Shown here: positions 7,201 to 55,663 of the stretch, one piece after another | Numbering within the stretch: position 1 is the stretch's first letter | Layout: the number at the start of each line of letters is the position of its first letter | NCBI GenBank assembly: GCA_041666325.1 | Contig: JBAYHC010000001.1 | Coordinates: 1 to 57,337, forward strand | Reading direction: 5' to 3' | From: Patescibacteria group bacterium | GTDB lineage: Bacteria; Patescibacteriota; UBA1384; XYA2-FULL-43-10; 1-14-0-10-43-13 | DNA: 57,337 nucleotides | Position numbers and translations under genes: made by a program | The notes under the pieces: generated by a model | The model's database searches: none | The model's input: only the letters and a program-made list of their open reading frames with translations | What the model was told of the DNA's origin: nothing

Positions 7201-7295
7201 CCCGGCTCAATATCCGGCCCAAAAGCATAGCCATACCCCAGCCCTTGAAACCACTCAATCGCCGCCTGTTCTAAATCTGATTCGGTGTATTTCAT
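4239..7295 (-). CDS. hsdR: Type I restriction enzyme R subunit
   Basis: 1018 aa. N-terminal PD-(D/E)xK-like [19 protein letters not shown]2 helicase motifs [10 protein letters not shown] and ADEAHRSQ. Sits in an operon with hsdM/hsdS. Confidence 0.95.
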
Positions 7296-28464: not shown

Positions 28465-28493
28465 TTGACTAAATCAACAAAATATGATATAAT
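28465..28493 (+). promoter_or_regulatory. Near-consensus sigma70-type promoter of GC-rich cassette A
   Basis: TTGACT, 17-nt spacer, TGaTATAAT (extended -10). About 70-nt leader, then GGAGGG at 28550-28555. Confidence 0.6.
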
Positions 28494-28563
28494 TCCTGCA
28501 TCTCGCGTATCCAACTCGAATCCTCGGGCTCTGGAACTATGCGATTCGTGGAGGGAACGGTTC

Positions 28564-29871: not shown

Positions 29872-29891
29872 GAAGGGCTGCATTCGTCTTC

Positions 29892-29926
29892 GCCGCTCCC
29901 GGCTTCGCTGGGGGCGGTTCTTTTTA
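29892..29926 (+). terminator. Intrinsic terminator of cassette A
   Basis: ccgctccc-ggcttcgct-gggggcgg stem-loop followed by ttcttttt. Confidence 0.6.
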
Positions 29927-41600: not shown

Positions 41601-44600
41601 CATAACTACCGCCGGAATAGTTTCCTGATCCCTTGCCTGGGCCGTTATTCGCCGAATAGCCCTTACCATCGACATTAATCTTTCCTGTAGAATCTACTGT
41701 CAATGCATCAAAAAGTAGGTTCATTTTATAAGTTTCACCTGCTGCGTCAGTAGAATTGGCATAATGCGTTAGGATTCCCCCATTGGTCACTATCCATGTA
41801 CCAGAACCGGTATAGTCCTGAACACCAGCAGAGGTATCCGGAAGCACAGTGCCGGCATTAACGGTTTTACCGTTATTGTTAATGGTGACTGTTTTAGTAC
41901 CGTCAGCCAGTTGCTTATAAATTGTTCCGGCACCGCCACCAGCATCAGAGCTCACCCCATTACTTCCGCCATAAGCTTGAGCGGCAACTGAACCAGTGTT
42001 GTTGCCACTAGTTAGAGTGATTGCAATGCGACCACCTCCAGCGCCCCAAGTACCGGTTCCGGTATAGGCATTTGCGCTGATTGTCCCGCCGCCTATCATT
42101 GTACCGGACGTGATATTTACTGTACCACCGGAGCAAGAGGCACTATTAGAAACAGTTTGCCCGCCTGCGCTAACTATGCTGCCAGTCACCAAATTAGTTT
42201 GGCCCGTAACATTAAGAATGATCGCGCCGCCGCCAAAGATATCACTCCTACTACTACCTGAGCCAAGGCTAATTGGGTTTGTTACCGAACCATACGTCGA
42301 ACTGGCAACCTGGTCAACGCCAACACCGCCATAGCCAGAGGTCAATTTGCCAGCAGTATAACCTGGCCCCTGACTCTGGCCATAACCCTTGCCGGTAACA
42401 TCAATTTTGCCAGTCGCGTCAACTGTCAAGGCGTCAACCGAAAGCTTCACTTTTTTGAGTAGATTATCAGCCGTTGCGGTGACAGCGCTCGAGTTGGGTA
42501 ATGAAGTTAGGATTGCCCCGTTCGTAATCGTCCATGTGCCGGTGCCAGTGTAATCCTGCACTCCAGCTGAGGTATCAGGCAAGATTGTCCCGGAGTTTGT
42601 TGTAATAGCATTATTATTAATCGTGACTGTTTTTGTGCCGCCGAGACTTTGGTAAACAGTTCCCGCCCCACCACTCGAAGTACCCCCGGCTGAACCTACC
42701 GCTCCGTAAGCCGTCGGTGTCCCGGAGTAAGTACTTGTAGTTGCTGTGATTGAGATTCGCCCACCACCGGAAGCGCGCTGACCCGCTCGGCCATTAGCCG
42801 TAATTGTACCACTACCGGACATTGAACCTGCGGTTATGTAAACACTACCGCCGGCGCCAGGATCATCAGCACCGAGGCCATTAGAGGAAATCGAACCGTT
42901 ATTAGCCAAGGCCCCACTAACAGTAAGCTTGATTGCTCCGCCACCGGATCCGCCAGAGCCGCCGGAGCCAAAATTAACCGGCGCCGTAACTGAACCGTAG
43001 GTATCCCGACTTGTTGTGGACTGCCCGCCTTTGCCGCCATAACTGCCACCACAATAGTTCGAACAAGCCGTGTTTGGACCCTGGTTGTAATCATAGCCAA
43101 GGCCATCAACATTGACTATGCCGTTAATCGTCAAGTCGCCCGTAATGGTCAGATCAATTTTATATGTCTCGGCAGTACTATTATCCGAGTGTGACAAAAT
43201 ACCATCGGCCGCAACAGTTAAATTGGTAAGACCGGAAATTGTCCCGGTCGAGTCGGCATTAAAGGTAACCTTCGAAATTGAGAAGTTTGCCGAAGTTGTT
43301 ACTGTTCCACGATTAGTAATTGCCCCGGCAGCGGTGCCGCTGCCACTAGAGAGAGCAGTCTCCGAATCCATGATTAACGTTGTCCCGGCAATGACAATCA
43401 GCTCAGCTTTGCGATCCACGGTGACAGTATCGAATTGCCATGTCTGACCGGTCGGAATCTCTGTGCTATAACCGGAACGCACCAAATTGTTATTGTCGAC
43501 TATCAAGGCTCCGTAAGTTTGGCCGCCGGTGTTTTTATACACCGTTCCGGCGCCGCTCTGATATGTATAGGTTGAAGTGCCGCAATATGCGGAAACTGTA
43601 CCGCTGTGGGTATTTGTCGCAGCAATAATTGCCACGCGACCGCCGCCGCCGCTTCGTTCGTTGGAGCTGTTTCCGCCATTGGCACTGATCGTGCCATTAC
43701 CGGAAACCGAGTTAGCACTGATAGATACGCTTCCACCAGAACCGGTCTCAGCCACAGCAGCGCCATTGGCACTGATCGTGCCATTTTGGGTGAGTGAACC
43801 CGTGATTGCCAATCTGATCGCGCCACCGCCCGCCGCCCCTCCTCCGTCACCGCCGGAGCCTAAGGCTAGCGGCACTTTCGGGTCCCCATATGTGGCCGCG
43901 CTTGTCCCCCAACCCTTACCGCCATAGGTTCCGGCGTGCCAATCAGCTCCGGCACTACCGGGACCGGTATTTTGGGCAAAGCCTTTTCCGTCCGCGCTGA
44001 TTTTCGCCCCTGTTCCAACGGTTACATCATTGGCAACTTTAAGGATTATCCCTCTTCCGCACTTTGGTGTTCCCGAAGAACAACCATTTGGAGTGACGAC
44101 ACTGCCCGAATCATCAGTCGGGTTGACGGTGGTATCGCCGGAAAAGACGAGGGTGATGCCACCAGTAGCAGCTTGGTTGAGGGTGATGTCGTGTTGGATA
44201 TCCCAGATATGGGCGGCGGTGCCGCCGGTGATGGGGTTTTTGTCAAAGGTAATGGTTTGGTTGTAGTTGTTTTGAACGATGAAGTCGTAGATGTTGTTGT
44301 TGACAGCTCCGGTTGAGACTAAAGCAGCTGAGCCGTTGCCTGGGGTAGTGTTGGCAACAGCGCCATCGAAGATCACATCGTCATTCGCCGCGGGAGCGTG
44401 GCCGCAATCCCAGTTGCCGGCTGTCGTCCAGGCGGCATTGGCAATGCCCTGCCAGGTGCAAGCGACCCCACCGGCCCCAACATTCGGGTCAACAGTGATC
44501 GGGAATTCGGCAGTGGCTAGGAAGTCAGGATCAATGGTGTATTTAATAATCTCTTGATTACCCCTGTTGTCATTCTGAACTGAAAGTGAAGAATCTAGCA

Positions 44601-46038
44601 AAGCGTTTGCATTCGTTCCTTCGGAACTAGATCCTTCGCTACTCTCGGGATGACGAACAGGAAGAGCAGCATCTTCTATGGTCATGCTGATCTTGCCCTG
44701 TTTCTTCTTGGCATCTTCAATCGTTGGAGCATAGAGGCGGAAGACTGGGGGAATGGTTTCGTTCTCTATCTCGTTCTTCTTGCCTCTATCTTCTTCTCGG
44801 TAAGCTAGCCATGAACCGTCTTTGTCTGGGTCTTCGGTGAAAAAGAAGTTATTGGTGGAATTAAGGGAGAATATAAGAGTGCTGGAAATCTTTTCAGAAT
44901 TGTCATTCTGAGGTGAAACCGAAGAATCTCCTGATTGAGGGGATCCTTCGCTCTGCTCAGGATGACCAGAAGAAACCTTAGGATGACTAATTAGAGCTTC
45001 CTTAGACTTGATAGTGATGAACTCTTTAACCTTGTTGGATTCCATGACATAACGAGCCGAGATTTGGTCGGTAATATGGTAGAGAACACCCTGGTCGCCC
45101 AAGGGCGTGACCTCGGTGTTGGCAATAGTGTTTGCGGGCAGGGAGTTGTTGTCTGGTATTTGGGCGGAAGAATCTTGAGCCTTGGCCTTTTGGGTGTCAT
45201 CCTGAACTGATGAGGCTATGAGGTGAAGGATCCCATCATATGCGTATGTAAGGGGATTCTTCGTTTCACTCAGAATGACATCATTTTCCCTATCCGATGG
45301 AGACGGAGTCCATAATCCGCTGACTTGCTGTCTAGATGACATGCTTACTTGCTTGAGTGTTTTCTCCTCCGGCACATTAAGCCCATCACTAAGGAGATTG
45401 ATTGAGAGCTGGTAGCTTGCGGCATTAGGGATACGGTCAGAGGTGGAGATGATATTAGCACCGACGGTTTTGGCTTCTTTGTTGGAGAAGCCGATAGTAA
45501 GATCATCATTGGTGCCGGTAAAGATAGTGGTGTCTTCCGGAGCGGAGGCAGCGATGTATTTGACCGAGGGCTTAAGTCCTGGGATAGAGGTAAAGAGATT
45601 GGAGTAGTTGGAGGAGATGGAAAAAGAGAGTGAGATGATGAAGATTAGGAGTGCGGAGATGTTTAGTTGGGAGAAGTAGGGGTAGGCATGAAGTCTATGA
45701 TAGAGTTTGCTCCGCATCGAGAGATAGACATGGAGGCGGTTTAATGATTTGAATGAGGTCTTGCCCGATTGCTGAAGTTGGATAATTTTGCGGTCGATTG
45801 CCTCAATCTTATCGGCTTCACGGCGTAAAGCATCGACTGCCTCGTCAATTACGACGGCGGTTTTTCGATCGACTCCAGCCTTTATATTTGGTGAATAGAC
45901 TTTTCTAAAATCAACTTTAACAAAACGCCGAAAGATAGTTGTGGATAACTTTTTACTCATACCAGAAAAAACAGAAATAATACCTAAAAACTTCCGTTTG
46001 GTCTTCCCAAAGGTGTGATGTTTAGTTTGAGAGTCCAA
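35620..46038 (-). CDS. Giant (3472-aa) N-terminally anchored surface protein: Gly-rich repeat modules, Ig-like region, FN3 array
   Basis: Single uninterrupted ORF. TTG start 9 nt after AGGAGG. TM ISALLIFIISLSFSISS at about aa 125-145. No C-terminal sorting motif. Confidence 0.9.
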   Translation of the reverse strand: MDSQTKHHTFGKTKRKFLGIISVFSGMSKKLSTTIFRRFVKVDFRKVYSPNIKAGVDRKTAVVIDEAVDALRREADKIEAIDRKIIQLQQSGKTSFKSLNRLHVYLSMRSKLYHRLHAYPYFSQLNISALLIFIISLSFSISSNYSNLFTSIPGLKPSVKYIAASAPEDTTIFTGTNDDLTIGFSNKEAKTVGANIISTSDRIPNAASYQLSINLLSDGLNVPEEKTLKQVSMSSRQQVSGLWTPSPSDRENDVILSETKNPLTYAYDGILHLIASSVQDDTQKAKAQDSSAQIPDNNSLPANTIANTEVTPLGDQGVLYHITDQISARYVMESNKVKEFITIKSKEALISHPKVSSGHPEQSEGSPQSGDSSVSPQNDNSEKISSTLIFSLNSTNNFFFTEDPDKDGSWLAYREEDRGKKNEIENETIPPVFRLYAPTIEDAKKKQGKISMTIEDAALPVRHPESSEGSSSEGTNANALLDSSLSVQNDNRGNQEIIKYTIDPDFLATAEFPITVDPNVGAGGVACTWQGIANAAWTTAGNWDCGHAPAANDDVIFDGAVANTTPGNGSAALVSTGAVNNNIYDFIVQNNYNQTITFDKNPITGGTAAHIWDIQHDITLNQAATGGITLVFSGDTTVNPTDDSGSVVTPNGCSSGTPKCGRGIILKVANDVTVGTGAKISADGKGFAQNTGPGSAGADWHAGTYGGKGWGTSAATYGDPKVPLALGSGGDGGGAAGGGAIRLAITGSLTQNGTISANGAAVAETGSGGSVSISANSVSGNGTISANGGNSSNERSGGGGRVAIIAATNTHSGTVSAYCGTSTYTYQSGAGTVYKNTGGQTYGALIVDNNNLVRSGYSTEIPTGQTWQFDTVTVDRKAELIVIAGTTLIMDSETALSSGSGTAAGAITNRGTVTTSANFSISKVTFNADSTGTISGLTNLTVAADGILSHSDNSTAETYKIDLTITGDLTINGIVNVDGLGYDYNQGPNTACSNYCGGSYGGKGGQSTTSRDTYGSVTAPVNFGSGGSGGSGGGAIKLTVSGALANNGSISSNGLGADDPGAGGSVYITAGSMSGSGTITANGRAGQRASGGGRISITATTSTYSGTPTAYGAVGSAGGTSSGGAGTVYQSLGGTKTVTINNNAITTNSGTILPDTSAGVQDYTGTGTWTITNGAILTSLPNSSAVTATADNLLKKVKLSVDALTVDATGKIDVTGKGYGQSQGPGYTAGKLTSGYGGVGVDQVASSTYGSVTNPISLGSGSSRSDIFGGGAIILNVTGQTNLVTGSIVSAGGQTVSNSASCSGGTVNITSGTMIGGGTISANAYTGTGTWGAGGGRIAITLTSGNNTGSVAAQAYGGSNGVSSDAGGGAGTIYKQLADGTKTVTINNNGKTVNAGTVLPDTSAGVQDYTGSGTWIVTNGGILTHYANSTDAAGETYKMNLLFDALTVDSTGKINVDGKGYSANNGPGKGSGNYSGGSYGGRGGNGSGSAVSGSVYGSSTEPVNIGSGGVSGTAGGGAIKVTVSGALTNNGAVSSIGGSGNAGNGSGGSVYLIAASMSGTGTISATGGVTNSYGAGGGGRIALSISGTLTQGNTISANGGSASSGAYYTSGGAGGSVYINAGTFEGAGAISANGYYASNGGNITIVATTTTYSGALTVTSGSVNVNAVPIVGMAGVISLPSSQMGASGNLTLGGAGNMTSLILGNTDSTQNPPTAVSYTFSSITINSGGTLVLDGNASTNPDPIPTGCSTEVKCGTGGSITATNITINSGGTLNADGKGFAPDAGPGKGVNNYAGGSYGGRGGNENGTSGPTYGTVASPLSLGSGGRGSSYGGGAIKLTVSGILNNNGGTISANGVSGNAGNGSGGSIFITANQLTNSGTISAVGGTSNSYGGGGGGRIAVIITGDTSFAQSGTISVNGGTTGSGVAFSGGSGGSIYMLLSSFSGSGAITANGVYKDGSGGSIAIYPTGTDTYSQGSATASKNGNGTIGTVAFQHVPAVTFSSPADTATNVSQLPTISFTATDSDNPADWYRMKVEIATDSGFTANAATFTQANDTNSFNTGGYQGSYTGMNYDGGGASTQDGYTSGTAGTFTFTSALTQGQAYYVRLSSCDPSGACGTLNQYSTASTRSFTIAAIDKVVFTNDAKTTIAHTVSTLYTAVVRNAIDEDVTVASQQIDLTSDLATNGTTRLFCSDNSSAVACKAAVITSITLTNVSSGTFYFYDETVGSATLTADPAGQSWTNATQAATITADVASRIQLSISGSPASTTTGATLTGTITAYDQYDNTATDYTGDKSITFSGAANAAAAPGGGTIYPTATDKTSTPINFGTTTTTTFTSGVSAATSIVLKKTETISLSVTDGTLSDQSPTDQRYSIQVRPGNLDHYGMSDYPQAGTAQFATAGFPWNSTGLAGGSQSPYDIVVTTYDAYSNLKYDYSGPIWFSMDADKVYTFPYDAASNKLDFTWSSNYIDGQHDLRTTTGDTYDNGRHIFDSSAFTVSTGGTSLAFYLHGKNGADAITPTNLPIKIKPASLGSLGIAFSPAMTTAPIDSAATSDVIVTAYDVLGNVKTDYTGQVYFTSTDSAVTLPNTSVSKYTFQVADLGAKTFDNAAFIFGTGGNHRITVTDDSTDPGTSYTATTGVVVVPTHAPSQVSATAGHESVTLAWTNTTDAAVSKMNIYQSTTQGELGTKLGSQPSVTPGTVSQYAVTGLTNGTTYYFTLKSVHLDPTEVEIESAASTQVEAMPADIAPRSVTAIQQSTGKIKVDYGLRYDSAVTVQYYNPTTATWHNATTAALSGDVGAGITGSEAISSHTLYYQIATDYPNQYFTALQGFKIKVKGTTNQGTGEGISNDLLLDTKPPRVNNGESAVLVDATGDNTATITLLAREDGATEQAIQYRISNNQDMSNASEWATLSAKPTTVSSWSLGDSAIIYVEFKDPYNNVLSASNAITNTPTDFALKDGSNLEVGTYRLMLIWTDPDVSNFANYTVERSLDGSSFSQLDTTTKNGYLDVKLNQSQRYYYRVKTADTLGNVSRPTAVLSSQPGAAPDVTASPTITLQNWKQEYGVRATVTWNTDQLADSFVVYSKEPLESGTGTTTTSGTAAQVVGQFDSTLSHSVLVQQLEPSTKYYFKTLSQNEVKITGASEVVEVTTPERVPLTLSSVTPTATTNTSTTVTWTTNKLSTTVLEYGTTTSYGSTKSETNQNTDHAIKLEDLSPGTTYHVRIKATDADENTTTSDDYAIAIPPTPTISGLKIEDLKPTQATITWTTNVNADSKVSFGPAGGAYTSEQGKSDLTTLHSVTIIGLESAKSYHYQVKSTDSYGNVATSSDATFTAPTDTTPPVISTTKSEVTTTGSGESAKIMAIITWETDEPSTSQVEYGQGISDEYQSKTEEVTTFNMTHTVIIPDIRPNASYQFRIISKDASGNMTKSQDQTIITPTKEKSLLQLVVKSLEETFSWTKRLKDAPLINKFRRN
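35740..38110 (-). repeat. Array of at least 6 FN3-like domains in the C-terminal part of the giant ORF
   Basis: Repeated (A/T)(T/V)(I/V)TW(T/N)T(N/D) ... Y(Y/H)(F/Y/V)(R/K/T) strands, e.g. TVTWTTNKLSTTVLEYG...TTYHVRIKA and ATITWTTNVNADSKVSFG...YHYQVKS. Confidence 0.7.
40050..44010 (-). repeat. Five 240-320-aa Gly-rich modules inside the giant ORF
   Basis: Recurring pattern DGKG(F/Y)..GPG..GGSYGG(K/R)GG..YGS...P...GSGG..GGGAIKLTVSG.L.NNG.ISANG..GSGGS(V/I)YI.A...SG.GTISA.G...GGGGRIA. The DGKG anchors lie near 43990, 43100, 42390, 41665 and 40708. Confidence 0.8.
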
Positions 46039-46175
46039 TTCCCCATCCCTCCTGATTCATTTACTGTAATCAGTATATAAAAAAACACTGATTGCTGCAA
46101 TGCATCTTGCCTAAGTGCTTCCCTGGAAATGGTATCATATTCCGTAAAGGTATTATCGTTAGTACTAATTTCGTT

Positions 46176-46802
46176 TTAGGCAGACGGCGCTTCGTCTGAT
46201 CCAGAGTCCGGATTTCCCTCTCTCTCAAGTCTGTCAAGCTTCTTTAGTACCTTGGGTATGGCCGTAAAGTCTAATTTGAATTGATTTAATATTGTTGTGC
46301 CGCGGAGTGCTGCTGCCGGATGATACATTGGGATAAGGACCCTTCTTTTGCCGGCAAAGTTGATCCACTTGGGTTGCCCGTGAACTTGGGAAATCTTCGT
46401 GTCGGGCAGGAATTTACCCATCGAAAACCGCCCTAGGGTAACGATTACCTTGGGGTCGATAATCTCGATCTGCTTGTCAACAAAGGGCTTGAATGCCTCT
46501 AACTCTTCGGGTAGTGGATCTCTGTTCTCGGGTGGACGAAAGTAAACAACATTGGAGATCCAGATATCTTCCCGCTTAATGCCGATCTCCAAGAGTGTTT
46601 CATTGAGGAGTTTTCCTGCTCGGCCGCAAAACGGAATACCTTGTTGGTCTTCGTTAAATCCAGGCGCTTCACCAAGAAAGAAGAGTGGTGAATCAGGGTT
46701 GCCATGACCAAAGACAAGATTGGTCGCACCGGCTCTTAGGGGCAGCGTGCTTTCGGCGCTGATTTGATGGCGTAGTTTTTCTAGCTCTTCAATCTTAGAC
46801 AT
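46176..46802 (-). CDS. Uracil-DNA glycosylase, family 4-like
   Basis: GEAPGFNEDQQGIPFCGRAGKLL motif and a C-terminal HPAAALR motif. ATG at 46802 (MSKIEELEKL) is preferred over the track's TTG at 46841. Confidence 0.85.
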   Translation of the reverse strand: MSKIEELEKLRHQISAESTLPLRAGATNLVFGHGNPDSPLFFLGEAPGFNEDQQGIPFCGRAGKLLNETLLEIGIKREDIWISNVVYFRPPENRDPLPEELEAFKPFVDKQIEIIDPKVIVTLGRFSMGKFLPDTKISQVHGQPKWINFAGKRRVLIPMYHPAAALRGTTILNQFKLDFTAIPKVLKKLDRLEREGNPDSGSDEAPSA

Positions 46803-46848
46803 AATTGTTTTCAGTATAGGACGAGATCGGACAAAAATCAAAAGTGGC

Positions 46849-47844
46849 TTACAGCCATTGAGTTGGCGTTTTAAGAAACTGTTCTATTGTTTGACCTACC
46901 TCGGCTGCATTGCTTGTTTCCATTAATGCCATTTTGAGTTCTTTGGCGCCATCGTAGCCTTTTAGATAGGAAGCAAAGTGTTTGCGCATGAGCATAAATG
47001 GCCGAGAGTTACCCAGAAGTTGTTCAAAAAGCTTGGTGTGCTCGAATAGAACTGCTAGAACTTCAGCTAGGGGTAAGTCACCTTTTTTGATCTCTTTGTT
47101 GAAAAACCATGGATTGCCAAAGATACCGCGGCCAATCATAGCGCCATCGATCTTGTAGGTCTGAACTTTTTTTATGGCTTCTTCGGTACTCCTGACGTCA
47201 CCGTTGCCAAGAATGACGATATCACTCCCCCGTGCCATTGTGGCAACTTGTCCGATTATGTCCCAATTGGCTGGAACTTTTGACATCTCTTTCCTGGTTC
47301 TGCCGTGAACTGTGATAGCTGCTGGCTGGGCTTCCAGTAATGCCGGAATCCACTCCTCGATGTCGATCTTGCTAAAGCCGATCCGGGTCTTGACTGAGAC
47401 GGGCTTCTCTCCTGCGCCTTCCTTGGTAGCGGCGATAACCTCTTTCGCTAAGGTTGAATCCTTAATTAAAGCCGATCCGGCACCCTGCTTGACAACTGAT
47501 TTGTCGGGACATCCCATATTGATATCAATACCATCGAAATCTAACCCAGAGACTATCTTCGCCGCCAAATAGAAGTTTTCCGGCTTAGATCCGAAGAGCT
47601 GAGCAACGATTGGTCTCTCTGAGTTATCGTATTGAAGGTCGAAAAGAACACGGTCCCGTCCCTTATTTGAGACAATGCCGTCAACTGAGGCGAACTCAGT
47701 GAACATGACGTCTGGTTTGCCATACTTGGCAATTATTTGCCGAAAAGCGGCGTCTGTGACGTCTTCCATTGGCGCGAGTGCCAAAATCGGCTTGGTTAAA
47801 GTGGGCCAGAAATTAGTGTTCGACATGTCGTCAAAACATAGCAC
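46849..47844 (-). CDS. dus: tRNA-dihydrouridine synthase
   Basis: LAPMEDVTDAAFRQI, DINMGCP and VHGRT motifs of the Dus TIM barrel. Confidence 0.9.
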   Translation of the reverse strand: MLCFDDMSNTNFWPTLTKPILALAPMEDVTDAAFRQIIAKYGKPDVMFTEFASVDGIVSNKGRDRVLFDLQYDNSERPIVAQLFGSKPENFYLAAKIVSGLDFDGIDINMGCPDKSVVKQGAGSALIKDSTLAKEVIAATKEGAGEKPVSVKTRIGFSKIDIEEWIPALLEAQPAAITVHGRTRKEMSKVPANWDIIGQVATMARGSDIVILGNGDVRSTEEAIKKVQTYKIDGAMIGRGIFGNPWFFNKEIKKGDLPLAEVLAVLFEHTKLFEQLLGNSRPFMLMRKHFASYLKGYDGAKELKMALMETSNAAEVGQTIEQFLKTPTQWL

Positions 47845-47931
47845 ATTTGAGTCTCAAATTATAGACCATGAAAGCAGACGTGTTTGTTTGAACTAAATTA
47901 ATATCTCGAAGAGATGGGACATCAATTCGGC

Positions 47932-48570
47932 TTATATTTGCTTGGCAAAGATTATCCAGCGCTTGGATGTTGTGCCTGGAGGCCAGCAGGTCATAAGGGT
48001 CAAAGTCTTGTCGTCTTTATCGTCTGGAGTGGCATCAGTAATGCTAAAGTCATCGGCTGCCACGGCCTTTGAAGCTACTACCTCATATTCGTAGTTGTCT
48101 CTTTTGTAAAAAACTACAAACCTATCCCCAACTTTCATTGAGTTGATGTCCTTAAATACTTCTTTGAAATTACCCGGCCTGTCTTTGTAGTATTTGGAGT
48201 GGCCAAAGATGAAGAGATTGCCCTTTTCTTTGGGCGACGTGGCATGATTGCGGCTGAGGGCAACACCATTCTCGATTGCTTTTAAGTATTGTGCTTCGTT
48301 GTTGTCGTCAACATCAGGAATAATTGGCGCCCAGATATTTATCTGGGGAACAGATAACCCAAACTCACCAATATCAGCTTTGATAGGGGTATTGTCCTCT
48401 GTTGCATAGTCTATGACGCTGGCGATAATTGTCTTAGTGTCAGATTTTTTGATCCGCTTGTAATAATAAGCAGTTCCTATCGCTGACACGATGACAAGAA
48501 AAGCAATCGCGGCCGGCACACCGATAATTAATTTCTTATTACGCTTTTTGAAAGTGAATTTATAATCCAT
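47932..48570 (-). CDS. Sortase-family transpeptidase
   Basis: 212 aa. N-terminal TM, FGHS (catalytic His context), LTLMTCWPPG (TLxTC catalytic Cys). Directly downstream of an LPLTG protein. Confidence 0.85.
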   Translation of the reverse strand: MDYKFTFKKRNKKLIIGVPAAIAFLVIVSAIGTAYYYKRIKKSDTKTIIASVIDYATEDNTPIKADIGEFGLSVPQINIWAPIIPDVDDNNEAQYLKAIENGVALSRNHATSPKEKGNLFIFGHSKYYKDRPGNFKEVFKDINSMKVGDRFVVFYKRDNYEYEVVASKAVAADDFSITDATPDDKDDKTLTLMTCWPPGTTSKRWIIFAKQI

Positions 48571-48595
48571 TTTGTCCTTTGTACGATTTTCGACA

Positions 48596-48627
48596 CGGAA
48601 CGACCCCGATATCCGGGGCCGCTTCCG
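48596..48627 (-). other. Strong hairpin between the LPLTG-protein gene and the sortase gene
   Basis: cggaacgaccccg / cggggccgcttccg gives about 12 bp with one bulge and one mismatch. There is no T tract after it on the coding strand. Confidence 0.6.
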
Positions 48628-48638
48628 TACCGATGTCT

Positions 48639-51600
48639 TCAGAATAGATTGCTTGCTAGATTAACCATCTTGACCCAAATTGCCTTCAATGTCCCCTCTT
48701 CGCCCGTGAGAGGCAGAACACCAGGTGTTGCACTCACTTGATTAGTATTTGTTGAGATATTGCCAGCTGTGTCATAAGAGCGAGCTGTGTAGTAATACTT
48801 CGTGCCATTGGTTAGGCTGGTGTCCTCGTAGCTGGTCGTTGTTTTGCTATCGACTGTCTTGACAAGGCTTCCCAGGGAGCCCTCTGTCGTTGACCGGTAA
48901 ATCTTAACACCTGTTAAATCAGAGTCAGTCGAATTTGTCCACGAAATAGTTGCCTTTTTGTCGCCAGCCGAAACAGCTATATTGGTTGGTGCTGACGGTG
49001 CGTTTGTGTCTGTCGAGGCAACAACTGCGAAGTCTGTCAGGTGGGTTGTAGCAAATGTAACAGTGTTTGTTGTTGTGTCAACTGAGCTAGCAGCAACGGA
49101 CTCCCACTGTCCACTATCCTCATTGAAGGCCTTCACAACCAGATTTGCTTCTTTGACGCCAGTTGGAATATCACCGTCATTGTAGTGAATTGTGCCTGTC
49201 ACCTGAGAAGCAAGAGTTGTAATAGAGTTACCGCTACCATCAATGGCTTCAACGGAGATACCCTTAATTGGAACATCGGCTTTTGTGCTAACAGCCTCTG
49301 CTTTCATTGGGGTTACCGTCAAAGTTGCGCTCGATGACGAACTACTGCTCGAGCCCTCTTCGCTGCTACTGCTTGAGCTTGATGACAATGCTCCGGTTGG
49401 AATTGCCAGAGAAGCATCAACTGCGCCGGATTTCGTTAGCTCAACAGTTGCTGGAGATGAACTACTAACATCTGCTGTTACTGCTTTGGCCAAAGAATCA
49501 GTTTTGGTCTCGGCTGTTAAGGTTAGTGTCTCTGTCTCACCCTTGTCAACGACTATCTTGCTGAAACCGCTCTCTGTGACCTCGCCGTTTTCTGGATTGT
49601 CTTTGCCTGCTTTGACTGAATATGCATCACCGGATTTATTTGATGGTAGATCAAACTTTACTGCTCCATTGATAGTACCATCTTTATCTTCCTCTGATCC
49701 ATCTGAAATCTCGAAAGCAATTGTGCCCTTGTCATTGAAGATCTGGACTGATGCTTCCTTGAGATCAGTACCATCGCTCTTGTTGATTTCTATTTCAGCA
49801 CTCGCATCAGCTTTGACCAGTGAGATTGTAACATCTGCACTCTCTTTGGACTTGATCTCGACCCTCGATGTCTCCGTTGCGAATAATCCCTGTTCCCGAG
49901 CATTCGTTACTAGATTATATGTATCCGGAGCGACGCTGATAGCGACAACACCATTTACGTCAGTAACACCGGAAAAACCGAATTCTGGACCCTCTGGACC
50001 CTCTGGTCTTGGGCCGCCAGGACCTTCATCGATAATATCAGCAAGTTTGTTGTTGGCAAAAACATTTACGCCCTCAATTGTATTGCCATCTTGATCCTTG
50101 ACGGTGACATTAATGGTGGCATCAACTTTAGCCAGAGTAAGATTGTGTGTTGTTGTGCCTCCGTCTGTTGTTGTCAAAGTCTTAGGACTCATGCTTGGAA
50201 TATACTCAGAAGTCCCTCCCATGATAGCATTTGCAGGAGCTACACCGACATTAACATCTGTAGCAGGTGGAACCTTGACGGTGTATGTACCAGTCGCAGT
50301 ATCAACTGAGCCTTCACTGAATCCGCCCTTCCAGAATGCACCTACCATGAGATTAAGCTTCTTGGCCGTTTCGCCCGTGATCTTCACATTATCATTTGAA
50401 GCATCTTGGATCTCGCCGGAAACTGTACCGGTCTTCTCTACTACTACAAGCTGAATCGTAGTATCGCCAGTAATCTCAACTGATTTTTCCTTGCCGGCGT
50501 ATTGAGAGTTTGGTGGATAGAAGGCATTGAAAGCGAATGTGCCTGTGGTAGTGTAAACAGTTGCTTGACCGCCAGCACCAGGTCCGCCAAATCCGGGACC
50601 AAATTGAGGTCCGCCAGTGCCAGTTGGGCGGGCATTAATCCAGTTGCCATCAGAAACAAGATTACCATCACCGTCTATGGTTGATACGGTAATTTTTTTG
50701 GTTGCCTTGTCGAATCTGAATGTTAGAGTATCTCCGCTTGAACCCTTCTGAGGACCTGTTGTTGGGAAAAGTTGGTTTGCGTCCATTGCACCTGTTGGTT
50801 TGCTGGCGGGACCTTCGGCCATTGCGCTTATGGTCCACTCCATCAATCCCATACGCTCTCCGCCCTTCTTTCCTCCACCCTCTTCGCCTCCTTCACGCAT
50901 GCCTGGCCCGCTACCACCGGGATTCGCCATGACACGATATGTCTTGCCCTTCATTACCTTGATCGTGCCAGTTCCATCTGAGCCAGTGAAAGACATCATT
51001 GGAGGGCCAGGATTCTTGGTGTCAAAAGCCATGATTGGCGTGCTAGCCAGTGCCGCGTCGCTGCCGCCATCAACACGATATGTTTGAACTGCGATTGATC
51101 CATCGAATGCCTGTAATTTGATCGTTCCAAGGCTATTGGCGCCCTTCTTGACTGCAAATCTGGTTTTGGGCACATAGTATTGTCCGCTCGGATCAAAGCG
51201 ATGAAGCTCCCACTCTCCGGTACCTGCAGATGTACTGAAGCTGAACGACCCATCGGTTGGATTAACCATCAATGGCTGGAAGCTATGTGTACGAAAATTC
51301 TGAGCTCCTGCTCCTCCTGATGCTGGCGTGCCATCTGGATTAATCAGTTTGCCGGTAACAGTAGCATTTGGCCGATCGACTAGCATCTCGAGCGAAACTG
51401 TCTCAGCTTCTGCGGCAGCCTTATTGAAGCTAATTGGCATCGGTGGCTTGGCTACAAATTCCGCCGGTGCTTGTTGCTGCTGCTGTCCTTGTCCTGGAGG
51501 AGGTGCGAATTGGGGCATAGCAGAGACCATCAGATTGCTTTTCTCGCCCTGAACAGAGACCCGAAGTTGCGCGACACCACTGCTGTTTGTCTGAGCAAAA

Positions 51601-52529
51601 GCGAAGCCACCACCACCATTAGAGAAAGCATTGACGTTGGCCCCCTGGATTGCTGCTCCGGTATCAGCATATTTGACAGTAACTTCGATGATCTTGTTAG
51701 ATCGTTGCAGAACAAGATTAATTGTCTGTGTCGCTGGAATAGTGATATTTTGCGGTTCGATCTGCATATATACATTAGTAACATTCTTTGCGGTCTCGCT
51801 GTTTGGATCAACGCCATGGCTGGTTTCCAGAACAAAGGTACCATCTGTTATACCGTAGAAGGTAGCATCACCGAGTGCATTGCTGGTTGCTCGCCACATG
51901 CCGCAACAGCTTTGCGGGTGGACTTCTAGCGGATAGCCCGCAACCGGCTGGCTATTATAAGAGACATTAACAGTCAGCGAGGCTGTACCAACATTGATTG
52001 AAGCGTTATTGTCGGGGCCCTTCTTGCCATCAAGCGCAGAACCGTTATTTAGGGTGTATGTGTTGGTAGACCAGCTACCGCCTTGTGTCGGGTTTGTCAT
52101 GCCCGTGAACTCCAGGGTAACTGTGCCGGCGGGAACTGCTGTCGACCCGTTCTGGATCGCCAAAATCAAAGAACCATCACCCTCTGGATATATCTCCATT
52201 CTTTGGTTCTTGAGTGCAGTGGTAGTGTTGCTCCCGAGGGTTGCGTTCCAAAAATCAGGCGGTTGGCCACCCATGGTGTTGATTTGGATTTCAACACGTC
52301 CGGTAGTGGCCGGAATTGCGGTTGCTGTTGTGAACGTGTGCGTAAATGTCACACTTGTCGCACCAAGTGTCGAACTGCTTGCTGCCCACGTCGGACTGGT
52401 GATGGCGCCAGCCTTGGCATGGGGTATGCCGAACCGAGACGGTTTATCTCCATTGCTAGAGATGATTGCATAGCCAAAAATGAGTGCTAATAATAGCACC
52501 TTGGCTAAGAGCTTTCTCTTTCTAAACAT
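48639..52529 (-). CDS. Large LPLTG-motif surface protein (sortase substrate candidate)
   Basis: ATG at 52529 is preceded by GGAGGGAGAA. Signal/TM LLAKVLLLALIFGYAII. Repeated beta-sandwich-like segments, a Q-rich linker, a poly-Ser tract, one FN3 (ATISWTNSTDSDLTGVKIYR...YYYTARSYD), and LPLTG at 48702-48716. Confidence 0.9.
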   Translation of the reverse strand: MFRKRKLLAKVLLLALIFGYAIISSNGDKPSRFGIPHAKAGAITSPTWAASSSTLGATSVTFTHTFTTATAIPATTGRVEIQINTMGGQPPDFWNATLGSNTTTALKNQRMEIYPEGDGSLILAIQNGSTAVPAGTVTLEFTGMTNPTQGGSWSTNTYTLNNGSALDGKKGPDNNASINVGTASLTVNVSYNSQPVAGYPLEVHPQSCCGMWRATSNALGDATFYGITDGTFVLETSHGVDPNSETAKNVTNVYMQIEPQNITIPATQTINLVLQRSNKIIEVTVKYADTGAAIQGANVNAFSNGGGGFAFAQTNSSGVAQLRVSVQGEKSNLMVSAMPQFAPPPGQGQQQQQAPAEFVAKPPMPISFNKAAAEAETVSLEMLVDRPNATVTGKLINPDGTPASGGAGAQNFRTHSFQPLMVNPTDGSFSFSTSAGTGEWELHRFDPSGQYYVPKTRFAVKKGANSLGTIKLQAFDGSIAVQTYRVDGGSDAALASTPIMAFDTKNPGPPMMSFTGSDGTGTIKVMKGKTYRVMANPGGSGPGMREGGEEGGGKKGGERMGLMEWTISAMAEGPASKPTGAMDANQLFPTTGPQKGSSGDTLTFRFDKATKKITVSTIDGDGNLVSDGNWINARPTGTGGPQFGPGFGGPGAGGQATVYTTTGTFAFNAFYPPNSQYAGKEKSVEITGDTTIQLVVVEKTGTVSGEIQDASNDNVKITGETAKKLNLMVGAFWKGGFSEGSVDTATGTYTVKVPPATDVNVGVAPANAIMGGTSEYIPSMSPKTLTTTDGGTTTHNLTLAKVDATINVTVKDQDGNTIEGVNVFANNKLADIIDEGPGGPRPEGPEGPEFGFSGVTDVNGVVAISVAPDTYNLVTNAREQGLFATETSRVEIKSKESADVTISLVKADASAEIEINKSDGTDLKEASVQIFNDKGTIAFEISDGSEEDKDGTINGAVKFDLPSNKSGDAYSVKAGKDNPENGEVTESGFSKIVVDKGETETLTLTAETKTDSLAKAVTADVSSSSPATVELTKSGAVDASLAIPTGALSSSSSSSSEEGSSSSSSSSATLTVTPMKAEAVSTKADVPIKGISVEAIDGSGNSITTLASQVTGTIHYNDGDIPTGVKEANLVVKAFNEDSGQWESVAASSVDTTTNTVTFATTHLTDFAVVASTDTNAPSAPTNIAVSAGDKKATISWTNSTDSDLTGVKIYRSTTEGSLGSLVKTVDSKTTTSYEDTSLTNGTKYYYTARSYDTAGNISTNTNQVSATPGVLPLTGEEGTLKAIWVKMVNLASNLF

Positions 52530-52641
52530 TTTCTCCCTCCTAATTAATTTTCCTACTAGAAACAAAAAATTCGCTTATTTAGTATTTTATTCTTTAGTGC
52601 CAAATAGTCAATTACCCCCATGGCAGGTACGGGACTCATTT

Positions 52642-52794: not shown

Positions 52795-52880
52795 TCTTGT
52801 TCCTTGTCCTCCTCAGAGATTTGTAGGCTTATTCCATCACAATGTTTGATCTCCGTCAATCTTATTTTAGTCCATATCTA

Positions 52881-52908
52881 TTGACAAATGTTATAGTTTG
52901 TGTATAAT
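52881..52908 (+). promoter_or_regulatory. Sigma70-type promoter of GC-rich cassette B
   Basis: TTGACA, 16-nt spacer, TATAAT. 55-nt leader with a small hairpin (gggc-ttg-gccc), then AGGAGG. Confidence 0.6.
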
Positions 52909-52963
52909 ACTTAGCGTGTCCGATGTTTGGGCTTGGCCCATTTCCCACGAAGGAGGAAGCACA

Positions 52964-53554
52964 GTGAGTCAGACAGGAACACAGAAAGAGAAACTGCCCG
53001 GATGGCTGATCTTGCGCAACGCCGCGTCCGAAATCACCGGCGCCGGCCAGAAGTACTTCCCGTTGCTCGACGATGAGGTGTCCGAGGGTTTGGTCGCCGA
53101 CCTCGGCATCAACTGCGTCGCCCGTACCAACGAGGTCATCCCCGAAGAGCATCTCGAAGAAGTGCTGGACGAGGTGGCCAAAGCCCTCTGCGCGATCGGC
53201 AAGCCGTGGGACGCGACCTTTGTCGCGTTCTTCGTCTCGCACGAGGGCATCGACGGTCTCGCGGCTCGCGTCGAAGCCCTGGATGACTGGGGCGTCATCA
53301 GGTGCACCTGCGGCGACTGCGCCGGCATTACCATCGCTCCGCTGGCGCTGGTCGACGCCCACAACGAGAAGAAGCGTCTGCGCGAAGAGCGACAGCGCCA
53401 GATCGAAGAGCAGATGCGTCGGCGCGGCCCCATAGAGGCGCTCTTCGGCGAGGACGGGATCCTGAGCCTGTTCACCCGCCGCGGGTCTCGGCCAGACGAC
53501 CGCATGTCGCCCGAGACCGAAACCGTGGCTACCGGCAGCGACAACGGCCACTAG
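52964..53554 (+). CDS. GC-rich hypothetical protein, paralog 1 (196 aa)
   Basis: GTG at 52964, 7 nt after AGGAGG. Shares the core NEVIPEE(H/R)LEEVL..VA.A.CAIG.PW...F..HEGIDGL..R..A...WG...C.C with the next gene. No known family recognised. Confidence 0.7.
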   Translation: MSQTGTQKEKLPGWLILRNAASEITGAGQKYFPLLDDEVSEGLVADLGINCVARTNEVIPEEHLEEVLDEVAKALCAIGKPWDATFVAFFVSHEGIDGLAARVEALDDWGVIRCTCGDCAGITIAPLALVDAHNEKKRLREERQRQIEEQMRRRGPIEALFGEDGILSLFTRRGSRPDDRMSPETETVATGSDNGH

Positions 53555-53621
53555 GTACGCCGCTTAGGAGTCGGCCTTTCAGCCGAGTCGCTTACGTCAA
53601 GAATATGAGGGGTTTGATTCC

Positions 53622-53672
53622 GGGGGTCCTGTTGCGAGCATCGCTCGCGCCGCAGGACCCCCTTCTTTTTTT
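53622..53672 (+). terminator. Intrinsic terminator of cassette B (repeat copy 1)
   Basis: gggggtcctg tt gcgagc atc gctcgc gccg caggaccccc, followed by ttcttttttt. Confidence 0.8.
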
Positions 53673-53694
53673 GCCTAAATTAGAGCGAGTGTTA

Positions 53695-53723
53695 TTGACA
53701 AATCAATCTTTTTTGGGTATAAT
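53695..53723 (+). promoter_or_regulatory. Consensus sigma70-type promoter of GC-rich cassette C
   Basis: TTGACA, 17-nt spacer, TATAAT. 55-nt leader with a tggg-ttcaa-ccca hairpin, then AGGAGG. Confidence 0.65.
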
Positions 53724-53778
53724 TCCGTCGTGTTCAGTCTGGGTTCAACCCATTGCCTACGACCAAAGGAGGAGACAG

Positions 53779-54369
53779 ATGACGATTCGTGAGATGATTG
53801 CCCAGCCGAAGAAGCCGGGCTGGCAGTTGCTGCTTGAGTCCGCTAGGGCTATGACGGCGCTGGTGGAGCGCTCAGCCGAGGAGATCGAAGCCAAGTTCGA
53901 CGAGGCGATGTCGAAGCTGACGGTCCACTGCTCGGCTCGCTTCAACGAGGTCATCCCCGAAGAGCGCCTCGAAGAAGTGCTGGCTGCCGTCGCGGAGGCC
54001 GCGTGCGCCATTGGGGAACCGTGGTCGATGCACCTGCTCATGTTCCATCTTGCCCACGAGGGGATCGATGGCCTCAAGACGCGCATCGGCGCCATCGAGG
54101 GTTGGGGCACCGTCGAATGCGGTTGCCACGAGGAGCAGTGCATGGGCATCATGGTCGCTCCCAACGAGCATATCGCGCGTGTCCGGGAGAGAGCGCGCAT
54201 GATGCAGATGATGGAGCAGGTCGGGGAGGCCAGTCCCCTGGCGGCTGCTTTGCTGAGCCCCGGTGGTCTGGTAGACGCACTTCAGGCCGATGGCCTCGAT
54301 GTCCGTGTCATCAGCCCGGGTGATATCGCCGGGTTGTTCGGCGGATCGGACCTGAAGCCCGCAGACTGA
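53779..54369 (+). CDS. GC-rich hypothetical protein, paralog 2 (196 aa)
   Basis: ATG at 53779 after AAAGGAGGAG. Same 591-nt length as paralog 1. The track's upstream extension to 53302 is a GC-rich read-through of the previous cassette and is rejected. Confidence 0.7.
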   Translation: MTIREMIAQPKKPGWQLLLESARAMTALVERSAEEIEAKFDEAMSKLTVHCSARFNEVIPEERLEEVLAAVAEAACAIGEPWSMHLLMFHLAHEGIDGLKTRIGAIEGWGTVECGCHEEQCMGIMVAPNEHIARVRERARMMQMMEQVGEASPLAAALLSPGGLVDALQADGLDVRVISPGDIAGLFGGSDLKPAD

Positions 54370-54415
54370 GCGGTGACCTTGTGGCCACTGTCGCGTACCA
54401 AGGTTTGCTTCCCAA

Positions 54416-54466
54416 GGGGGTCCTGTTGCGAGCATCGCTCGCGCCGCAGGGCCCCTTCTTTTTTTG
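54416..54466 (+). terminator. Intrinsic terminator of cassette C (repeat copy 2)
   Basis: Same sequence as 53622-53672 apart from one substitution and one 1-nt deletion, followed by a T tract. Confidence 0.8.
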
Positions 54467-54469
54467 TTC

Positions 54470-54501
54470 AAAAACAAAAACGACGTCCTTGCGGATCGTC
54501 G
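54470..54501 (-). terminator. Intrinsic terminator of the 265-aa gene
   Basis: Minus strand cgacgatccgcaaggacgtcg followed by tttttgttttt. Confidence 0.65.
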
Positions 54502-54527: not shown

Positions 54528-55325
54528 TCAAGAGCCGAATTGCTCTTGCGCGGACTCGCTCATGATCGCATCATGTGCCATTCTTTCGCCCTTCTCGGTA
54601 ACTCTAACAAATCCCCTTTCGTCAACCGCAAAGAAGTCATCGGCAATCAGTGAGTTTATCTCTGGTACTGGACCAACTGGTATAATGATCTCCTCGCGCC
54701 TGAGCTCAATACCGGCTTTCACTGTGAGCAGGTAGAGGTTCCGAAAGTACTCCAGGCAGTCGGCATCAATCTTATTGTATGGTCCGCTACTACAGGCGCC
54801 AATATAGTAGCTCAAATCAGTTCTTGCTGGAAACGCAACAATTTCGAAAAGACGTAGAACAAGCAATTTGCTCAACGGGTATTGGCGAAGCGTAGGCCAA
54901 TTGCCCGGATGGATTCGCTCGGCCCTTTCTCTGGCAATGTCGAGATAACTGCGACAGATCGAGATGTCGTTACATGCCACGTGGAGATGATCAAAAGCCT
55001 GACCGAAAGTTATCTCGATGCCGCTCCTGAAGCGGCGGGGAAGAACAACAAACGGTGTGTGAACTACCTGGCAACAGCCGGAATTGAAGGCATACGTGGT
55101 AAGTTTGCTGGGATCGAGCATCTCGGGCTCATTTTCGAAAAACCAGGCCGCAAAGTCAGGCGATTCGTTGGCAAGAACCTGCAATGCAGCCTTGGCATCG
55201 ACGCAGAAACCGTTTCGTTCATCTCCGTCGATAACTCCCAGGACACAATTGATCCAGCCCAATTTGGTTTCAGCACTCGCGCGGCCGCCCTCCGGACGAC
55301 CATGAACAAGAATCCATCTCCCCAT
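54528..55325 (-). CDS. Hypothetical protein (265 aa)
   Basis: ATG 9 nt after GGAGG. Uninterrupted ORF with intermediate GC. No recognisable motif. Confidence 0.6.
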   Translation of the reverse strand: MGRWILVHGRPEGGRASAETKLGWINCVLGVIDGDERNGFCVDAKAALQVLANESPDFAAWFFENEPEMLDPSKLTTYAFNSGCCQVVHTPFVVLPRRFRSGIEITFGQAFDHLHVACNDISICRSYLDIARERAERIHPGNWPTLRQYPLSKLLVLRLFEIVAFPARTDLSYYIGACSSGPYNKIDADCLEYFRNLYLLTVKAGIELRREEIIIPVGPVPEINSLIADDFFAVDERGFVRVTEKGERMAHDAIMSESAQEQFGS

Positions 55326-55438: not shown

Positions 55439-55663
55439 TTACTCCTTTTCTTCTTCCTCGGACATCATCTCATCATCGGAAAGCTCCTCTTCCTCAATGT
55501 CCTCTCCCGTATCACCAAGCATGCTGCATTCAACTCCGCCGTCTGTTGGAACTATCTCAACGACGTTATGGCCCGGCTTACTCTCCATGTGCGATCTAGC
55601 ATCAGTCTCACTTTCGCTAGCAAAGTCACAGCCGGCGTGAAGGCAAATATATTTTGTCGACAT
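55439..55663 (-). CDS. Small C2H2-like zinc-finger protein with a very acidic tail
   Basis: 74 aa: YICLHAGCDFASESETDARSHMESKPGH (C-x4-C-x12-H-x6-H), then GDTGEDIEEEELSDDEMMSEEEEKE. AAGGAG lies before the ATG. Confidence 0.6.
   Translation of the reverse strand: MSTKYICLHAGCDFASESETDARSHMESKPGHNVVEIVPTDGGVECSMLGDTGEDIEEEELSDDEMMSEEEEKE

Follow-up and report, generated by a model that had tools for sequence, protein, structure and literature searches.

Anatomy of the tandem units

We analysed a stretch of 57,337 nt from a Patescibacteria group bacterium (GenBank assembly GCA_041666325.1, contig JBAYHC010000001.1), which is called the window throughout. Near its 3' end, two collinear units stand head to tail on the plus strand, and each consists of a promoter, a leader, an open reading frame (ORF) and an intrinsic terminator. 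ORF1 (52964-53554, GTG start) and ORF2 (53779-54369, ATG start) both measure 591 nt including the stop codon, each encode a protein of 196 amino acids (aa), and are offset by 815 nt. The unit 1 promoter (52879-52908) has the extended -35 region TATTGACAAAT, in which TTGACA occupies 52881-52886, followed after a 16-nt spacer by TATAAT at 52903-52908. The unit 2 promoter (53693-53723) has the same TATTGACAAAT and TATAAT with a 17-nt spacer, its hexamers spanning 53695-53723. Both promoters match the consensus at 12/12 positions, and only three such perfect promoters were found in the whole 57-kb window. The -35 extension is identical between the units at 11/11 positions, at an offset of 814 nt.

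Each promoter is followed by a 55-nt leader (52909-52963 and 53724-53778), which contains a small stem-loop (52928-52940 and 53740-53752) and the Shine-Dalgarno site AAGGAGGA with its AGGAGG (52950-52957 and 53766-53773). The stems read UGGGC/GCCCA in unit 1 and UGGGU/ACCCA in unit 2. The original prediction, made from the DNA letters without database searches, had pointed to a leader hairpin with compensatory changes; the hairpins are present, with one compensatory pair between them, but shuffled sequences fold at least as well as the leaders (z = +0.26 for unit 1 and +0.66 for unit 2).

Unit 1 ends in a long hairpin with an internal loop and a T-run (53622-53672; -37.3 kcal/mol, z = -5.2). 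Its counterpart in unit 2 (54416-54466; -33.0 kcal/mol, z = -3.7) differs by an A-to-G substitution, which makes a U-G pair, and by the deletion of one C. The terminator core GGGGGTCCTGTTGCGAGCATCGCTCGCGCCGCAGG is identical at 35/35 positions at 53622 and 54416, an offset of 794 nt, where chance would be expected to give no such match, and it has no further occurrence anywhere in the window. Within the ORFs, a 40-nt block (53129-53168, encoding NEVIPEEHLEEVL in ORF1; 53944-53983 in ORF2) is identical at 38/40 positions and includes 12 consecutive identical codons. The promoters, the AGGAGG sites, the ORFs of equal length, the coding block and the terminators that differ by one substitution and one indel had all been listed in the prediction, and all were recovered.

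The reading frame of ORF2 also remains open upstream, across the unit 2 promoter and the unit 1 terminator and into ORF1, as a 355-aa ORF (53302-54369) in a frame different from that of ORF1. It is probably a by-product of stop-poor, GC-rich sequence.

Pairwise alignment of the units segment by segment bore out their homology from promoter through terminator, and divergence across flanks and ORF was clearly uneven. Upstream of the -35 box and beyond the T-run there is no identity. The promoters match at 24/34 positions, with identical hexamers and extension and a diverged spacer; the leaders are 59% identical, the N-terminal part, core and C-terminal part of the coding sequence (CDS) 44%, 65% and 44%, and the proximal 3' untranslated region (UTR) 39%. 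In the terminator, the hairpin plus T-run match at 50/52 positions, and this segment and the one coding block are far more alike than the rest. The earlier claim that the regulatory ends are more conserved than the coding sequence therefore holds for the terminator, while the promoter and leader, outside the hexamers and the short extension, do no better than the CDS core.

The coding sequences separated long ago under purifying selection

As had been described, the remaining coding sequence has diverged strongly, and the two proteins are 39% identical (E = 3e-29). The codon alignment of ORF1 and ORF2 gave a synonymous divergence (dS) of 1.39, which is saturated, a nonsynonymous divergence (dN) of 0.63 and a ratio (omega) of ~0.45. 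The termini (residues 1-50 and 127-196) reached dS values of 1.8-2.0, and the core (residues 51-126) showed dS ~1.0, dN 0.36 and omega ~0.36. The saturated dS together with an omega of ~0.45 therefore indicates an old divergence under purifying selection, and not the diversifying selection that had been suggested.

The closest outside homologue, P0003, comes from an unrelated metagenome (locus L007). ORF1, ORF2 and P0003 are mutually equidistant, with identities of 39%, 38% and 37%. Hence the pair is either a very old duplication or the result of two separate acquisitions. The L007 promoter shares the -35 extension of the two units, as the same ATTATTGACAAAT...TATAAT, and its distance from the -10 box to the start codon is likewise 55 nt. 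Promoter conservation is thus a family trait and not peculiar to the pair. With a saturated dS, equidistance from P0003 and a family-wide promoter, the recent duplication with conserved regulatory ends that the prediction implied was not borne out.

A rare protein family with a confidently predicted fold

An exhaustive HMMER search of 1.84 billion representatives returned 31 proteins at E values up to 1e-3, seven of them at up to 1e-10. A word-indexed search of 5.8 billion proteins found the window's own proteins only, and added two members when repeated with the family profile. In the alignment of 30 members, the conserved elements are PGW.IL..A, R-x-x-E-x-I-P, W, F, Q/H-x-G, W and CxC-x(2-6)-C. 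P60 is invariant (30/30), R54 and F89 are each kept in 29/30, and each of the three Cys positions is occupied in ~20/30.

The prediction had recognised no family for these proteins, and family-level and structure searches likewise came back empty. Whether single proteins or all 30 members were compared, there was no significant or recurrent match in Pfam, NCBIfam, PHROGs, PADLOC or PDB sequences. Searches of phage and plasmid collections by tblastn detected no family member, and pattern scans of GTDB representative genomes, IMG/VR and JGI metagenomes yielded no relatives. INPHARED, IMG/VR, PHROGs and BFVD likewise held no match to the cassette proteins.

When the ORF1 protein was modelled by AlphaFold2 with the family alignment, the full-length model reached a predicted local distance difference test (pLDDT) score of 86 and a predicted template modelling (pTM) score of 0.74; the core domain alone reached 95 and 0.88. 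The model predicts helices at residues 13-34, 37-53, 61-78 and 84-105, a beta-hairpin at 109-126, a further helix at 127-153 and a disordered tail. Foldseek searches of PDB and BFVD with the full-length and core models gave nothing better than E ~0.5. Both proteins are acidic (isoelectric point 4.8 each), and no signal peptide was seen on reading their sequences. From the model, we read the product as a soluble binding protein whose predicted fold is not yet among solved structures. The CxC..C motif on the beta-hairpin is a possible metal knuckle in about two-thirds of the family, and the invariant loop R-x-x-E-x-I-P would suit a binding surface better than an enzyme active site. As a low-confidence guess, the family may supply protein-binding protective or conflict factors.

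The cassette architecture recurs across the family

Family members were also compared at ten further loci (L004, L006, L007, L088, L089, L090, L172, L174, L175 and L176), and the gene is monocistronic at 10/10 of them. Promoters were scored in 11 members, namely the two window copies and nine of these loci, and all 11 match the consensus at 10-12 of 12 positions; the extension TTGACAAAT is found in 5/11. The twelfth member, at L176, has a weaker promoter (TTGACT-17-TACCGT). Leaders at the further loci measure ~40-80 nt; in several of them a stem-loop lies close to the 5' end, and each locus has a strong Shine-Dalgarno site. A GC-rich hairpin follows the stop codon at all nine loci with 3' sequence, a count without L007, where only 9 nt of the contig remain beyond the stop; after the hairpin comes a T-run in 8/9 and an A-run in L174.

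The identity of the promoter hexamers between the window copies reflects a functional constraint common to the whole family. Whether the flanks recur around other ORFs had been put forward as a check, and the answer is divided: the promoter extension does recur upstream of family members elsewhere, but the terminators at other loci, equally hairpin-like, are unrelated in sequence. Neighbouring genes differ at all 11 loci, among which no conserved neighbour, partner gene or synteny was found, and the family gene often runs against a co-directional array of neighbours on the other strand.

Composition of the family genes

The window ORFs have a GC content of 0.65 (ORF1) and 0.64 (ORF2). Their GC content at third codon positions (GC3) is 0.83 and 0.79, respectively, against 0.40-0.57 for ordinary genes of the window, so that the excess over their own promoters and surroundings, noticed at first reading, was confirmed. 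At most loci the family gene likewise has the highest or nearly the highest GC3. The difference is pronounced at L004 (0.74 vs 0.25-0.39 in neighbours) and L089 (0.72 vs 0.33-0.45), and it is seen at lower absolute values at L174 (0.52 vs 0.25-0.43) and L090 (0.49 vs 0.18-0.38). At L176 the gene reaches 0.77 among neighbours mostly at ~0.4-0.5, one unrelated ORF there having 0.84. The gene is close to the top of its neighbours' range at L175 (0.72 vs 0.40-0.69) and falls within it at L172 (0.68 vs 0.46-0.74), and the excess in total GC is small at L172 (0.56 vs 0.50), L006 (0.58 vs 0.53) and L088 (0.52 vs 0.51).

In all 11 members scored, the composition steps up near the transcription start: promoters have 17-40% GC, leaders 33-56% and coding sequences 48-65%. 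The TA dinucleotide is depleted, with an observed/expected ratio of 0.33 in ORF1 and 0.26 in ORF2, compared with 0.64 in the host gene pool and 0.72 in another GC-rich island. Translational selection was rejected as the cause of the high GC3, since the highly expressed host genes for ribosomal protein L33, pilin, trigger factor, ClpP and GAPDH are not GC3-rich. Selected mRNA secondary structure in the CDS was set aside as well, with z values of only -0.15 to -1.1 against synonymous shuffles.

A second GC-rich cassette lies at 28465-29926 of the window. It comprises a promoter (TTGACT-17-TATAAT, 28465-28493), a leader, an ORF (28564-29871) for a 435-aa lipoprotein-like protein with GC 0.61 and GC3 0.74, and a terminator at ~29890-29926. 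The codon usage of this ORF correlates with that of ORF1 and ORF2 (r = 0.64-0.74), but shows no correlation with the host pool. Searched for a donor lineage, the gene proved to be an orphan with no family match and no homologue other than itself. At L176, small ORFs at 4856-5119, 6565-6780, 7070-7843 and 9059-9499 have a GC3 of 0.66-0.84 among genes at ~0.4. GC-rich orphan genes look like a general feature of these genomes.

Two anomalously identical patches

The 40-nt block encodes 12 consecutive identical residues with identical codons, including matching GAA/GAG choices, whereas elsewhere the codon is the same for only 43% of identical residues. Such a run is improbable by permutation (p = 0.0055), and the local dS is 0.125 compared with 1.39 over the full gene. 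At the nucleotide level, the block is not shared by the L007 homologue. As terminators are also unrelated between loci, neither identity is demanded by function alone. The simplest cause of both patches would be short-tract gene conversion between the tandem copies; recombination or gene conversion, one of the two options first offered for the pair, is thus plausible for the terminator and the 40-nt block only.

A segment of ORF1 (53435-53455) is complementary to the block, at 19/21 positions to the ORF2 copy (53950-53970) and at 17/21 to the ORF1 copy (53135-53155). The 19/21 level was reached by 1/100 synonymous-codon shuffles. This complementarity could arise by chance from antisense codon pairs in E/L/A/R-rich sequence, or it could mark an RNA-RNA contact. 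Intramolecular pairing of the block was rejected as a family feature, the other members not exceeding shuffled controls. The best Rfam match had an E value of 0.5, far below any gathering score. An exact scan of metagenome contigs for the terminator core returned no match, but this carries no information, as the scan missed even the known JGI contig described below.

Assembly and genomic surroundings

Across the locus, a 687-kb contig at ENA is base-for-base identical to the window. An 87-kb JGI contig from a different sample shows one single-nucleotide difference in 14.4 kb, at 44145, outside the cassettes. As two independent assemblies agree and the copies are only ~57% identical at the DNA level, an assembly artefact is excluded for practical purposes. 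The host is a bacterium of the Candidate Phyla Radiation (CPR) with a genome of roughly 0.7 Mb or more. The window's ClpB (72-73%) and pyruvate kinase (73%) are most similar to proteins of metagenome-assembled genomes (MAGs) labelled Patescibacteria or Candidatus Saccharibacteria, and the next-best pyruvate kinase matches are from Berkelbacteria MAGs (63-67%).

The cassettes are surrounded by genes for a sortase, two giant fn3-type surface proteins, UDG, Dus, orphan ORFs, a LysM protein and pyruvate kinase. A sigma factor gene is found ~5 kb away and is not adjacent. No phage, integrase or transposase gene was found around the cassettes, with 10 kb on each side examined for phage genes and integrase. 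The giant fn3-like proteins (3472 aa, 35620-46038; 1308 aa, 48639-52565) are encoded on either side of the sortase gene (47932-48570), and a set like this one (35620-52565) is what episymbionts typically carry on their surface. In the ENA contig, the 1308-aa protein was called with 12 residues fewer. Downstream and convergent with ORF2 on the minus strand are a 265-aa orphan ORF (54528-55325, no family match) and a 74-aa acidic ORF (55439-55663) with a weak C2H2 zinc-finger-like match. The interval from the 1308-aa gene to pyruvate kinase consists of orphan genes throughout.

The nearest GTDB relative, UR.bin185 (L092), lacks a family gene, and its pyruvate kinase gene is immediately preceded by that for prolyl-tRNA synthetase (ProRS), at the place where the window carries its island of orphan genes. 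Synteny is not conserved, however, which makes the comparison weak. Positions 1-860 of its contig, of which 1-2527 were examined, contain long ORFs in several frames, a pattern that a GC-rich island would also give. Elsewhere in the window, a PIF1-type helicase with a C-terminal WYL domain (13431-15101, GC3 0.67) adjoins a type I restriction-modification system (HsdM, 11082-12602; HsdS, 8749-10005; a 1018-aa ORF, 4239-7295). A homologue of this helicase (53% identical) stands directly beside the family member in L006 (723-2339).

Discussion

With a probability of about 0.6, we interpret the two units as anciently diverged members of a rare, unannotated, stand-alone accessory gene family, placed head to tail in a CPR chromosome as moron-like, non-phage cassettes. 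Each unit would be an autonomous monocistronic expression cassette. A consensus sigma-70 promoter would start a transcript with the 55-nt leader and its small 5' stem-loop, a consensus Shine-Dalgarno site would serve the 196-codon GC-rich ORF, and a very stable intrinsic terminator would end the transcript. Judging from these signals, both copies may be transcribed independently, probably strongly and constitutively. The predicted product is a soluble acidic protein with a four-helix bundle, a CxC..C beta-hairpin, a charged helix and a disordered tail. The copies separated long ago, either by an old duplication or by separate acquisition, and purifying selection keeps both; the terminator and the 40-nt block may since have been homogenised by short-tract gene conversion between the tandem copies.

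The family-wide excess in GC and codon usage, which begins near the transcription start, would most simply be the signature of a horizontally spreading cassette. That the cassette spreads horizontally as a whole is suggested by its patchy distribution, by a composition that is foreign in hosts of widely differing GC, and by the absence of synteny. Natural competence, which Saccharibacteria possess (PMC10633639), offers a route for such spread.

Several points weigh against this interpretation. The case for horizontal spread is made by composition and patchy distribution, while the phage, plasmid, IMG/VR and GTDB-representative collections contain no family member, and neither mobility machinery, nor a target-site duplication, nor a donor genome was found. 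Both copies keep a GC3 of ~0.8 despite their saturated dS in a host with a GC3 of ~0.5, which fits a recent joint arrival or a GC-maintaining force and not a long residence under neutral drift. Gene conversion would look the same as nucleotide-level constraint until sister genomes are compared, and the 19/21 complementarity of the block to an ORF1 segment hints at a possible constraint at the RNA level.

The abrupt compositional discontinuity could in principle come from a chimeric or collapsed repeat, or from GC-rich contaminant DNA fused into a CPR contig, but assemblies from different samples are identical across the locus, copies with ~57% DNA identity make collapse or artificial duplication impossible, and the same architecture was found again in 10 unrelated contigs; we give such an artefact practically no credence. 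Hardly more plausible is a recent in-situ tandem duplication with positive selection on the proteins and flanks that have merely not yet diverged. Collinear units, equal ORF lengths and a nearly identical terminator and coding block would suit it, yet dS is saturated at 1.39 with omega at ~0.45, the proximal 3' UTR (39%), the promoter spacer and the leader (59%) have diverged as well, and P0003 is about as close to either copy as the copies are to each other. It is also rather unlikely that the terminator and the block are kept by a sequence-specific function, such as RNA-RNA pairing, a protein-binding element or a small-RNA-like element in both transcripts. The frozen synonymous sites of the block (12/12 codons, p = 0.0055) and its 19/21 and 17/21 complementarity to 53435-53455, the former level being seen in 1/100 shuffles, speak for such a function. 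Against it stand the unrelated terminators of other members, which also show no complementarity to their own blocks above shuffles, the L007 homologue without the block at the nucleotide level, the absence of an Rfam match, and CDS folding within the range of synonymous shuffles (z -0.15 to -1.1).

A more serious competitor, which we nevertheless consider improbable, places the gene in vertical inheritance and has the GC excess maintained on the transcribed region, through GC-biased gene conversion or through selection for a nuclease-resistant, long-lived mRNA. All 11 scored members change composition close to the transcription start, the promoter is apparently inherited together with the gene, the window copies hold a GC3 of ~0.8 despite saturated dS, and TA is depleted (0.26-0.33 vs 0.64 in host genes). 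In 5'-end-dependent mRNA decay, a 5' stem-loop and a 3' hairpin are stabilising, and both the 5' stem-loop and the long 3' hairpin of the cassettes would act in this way. However, highly expressed host genes lack such a bias, there is no mRNA structure beyond what composition gives, and the distribution is extremely patchy, with ~31 clusters among 1.8 billion representatives and neither neighbours nor synteny conserved. Other, unrelated GC-rich orphan genes with similar codon usage in the same genomes are a better fit to imported DNA.

Phage morons are defined as independent units that carry a promoter and a terminator of their own and deviate in GC content (PMC3594210). The cassettes resemble morons of the HK97 gene 15 type (Juhala, Hendrix and colleagues; reviewed in PMC3594210) in having their own sigma-70 promoter and intrinsic terminator, here by sequence prediction, and a GC content that differs from that of the neighbours (GC3 0.79-0.83 vs 0.40-0.57). 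They are also inserted between unrelated genes, often on the opposite strand, and are patchily distributed. Unlike morons, they lie outside any phage or prophage, among genes for a sortase, surface proteins, UDG, Dus, pyruvate kinase and a sigma factor, and one protein family recurs as cargo with a conserved promoter extension in many hosts. Classical morons are moreover defined against a cassette-free relative; UR.bin185 has no family gene, but its unconserved synteny makes it a weak comparison. As the defining phage context is absent, the cassettes are moron-like and not morons.

The tufA/tufB genes of Salmonella are known for concerted evolution by short-tract gene conversion, and classical pairs of this kind are homogenised along most of their length. 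The window pair shares with them patches of near-identity (50/52 and 38/40) in paralogues of the same orientation, but here these are only two patches of 40-50 nt against saturated divergence, and gene conversion is the suggested cause. Tandem arrays of diverged immunity or orphan-immunity genes are found at polymorphic-toxin and bacteriocin loci. Like their products, the family proteins are small, helical, acidic and non-enzymatic as far as the model suggests, and the genes form diverged tandem paralogues with a patchy distribution. In contrast, the 11 loci show neither a toxin nor a conserved partner, each gene is equipped with a promoter and a terminator of its own, and PADLOC, Pfam and NCBIfam gave no match. 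A toxin-antitoxin or toxin-immunity pair was rejected on the same grounds, namely a monocistronic gene, different neighbours at 11 loci and no conserved co-transcribed partner.

Integron cassettes consist of a promoterless ORF ending in attC (core sites RYYYAAC and GTTRRRY), with the integron integrase nearby. A compact ORF followed by an imperfect inverted repeat and a head-to-tail arrangement are common to both, but the units have consensus promoters, their hairpin runs into a T-run, its sole GTT precedes GCGA and not RRRY, and no integrase occurs within 10 kb on each side, which excluded this class. ZAS anti-sigma factors carry H-x3-C-x2-C in a helical anti-sigma domain and are encoded beside an ECF sigma factor gene. 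The family motif is instead CxC-x(2-6)-C in a beta-hairpin, and about one member in three lacks it; the sigma factor gene is ~5 kb off, and Foldseek gave no match; this assignment was rejected as well. So was a structured non-coding RNA, given a best Rfam E value of 0.5, CDS folding z values of -0.15 to -1.1 and clear conservation at the protein level.

The tandem duplication itself is ordinary biology. The family-level result is of more interest than the pair: a confidently predicted fold without known relative, in what appears from its signals to be a self-contained high-expression cassette, GC-richer than its host at nearly every locus. A bolder and speculative extension, which we regard as improbable, would make these a new class of phage-independent, self-contained expression cassettes that move among Patescibacteria, for example by natural competence. 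In each, a conserved, extended promoter and a 5' stem-loop would precede a GC-rich, TA-poor ORF, with a strong terminator behind it. Their cargo would be a Cys-hairpin four-helix protein of new fold, acting in episymbiont-host or anti-phage conflict, and the GC step would be intrinsic and maintained, not a donor leftover. Patescibacteria have tiny genomes, and most of their accessory genes are without known function. The cassettes offer a lead on how episymbionts take up and express new genes when neither phages nor plasmids act as vehicles, and on which proteins serve their conflict or host-association biology. With the tandem pair, short-tract gene conversion between strongly diverged paralogues could be tested on a small natural example.

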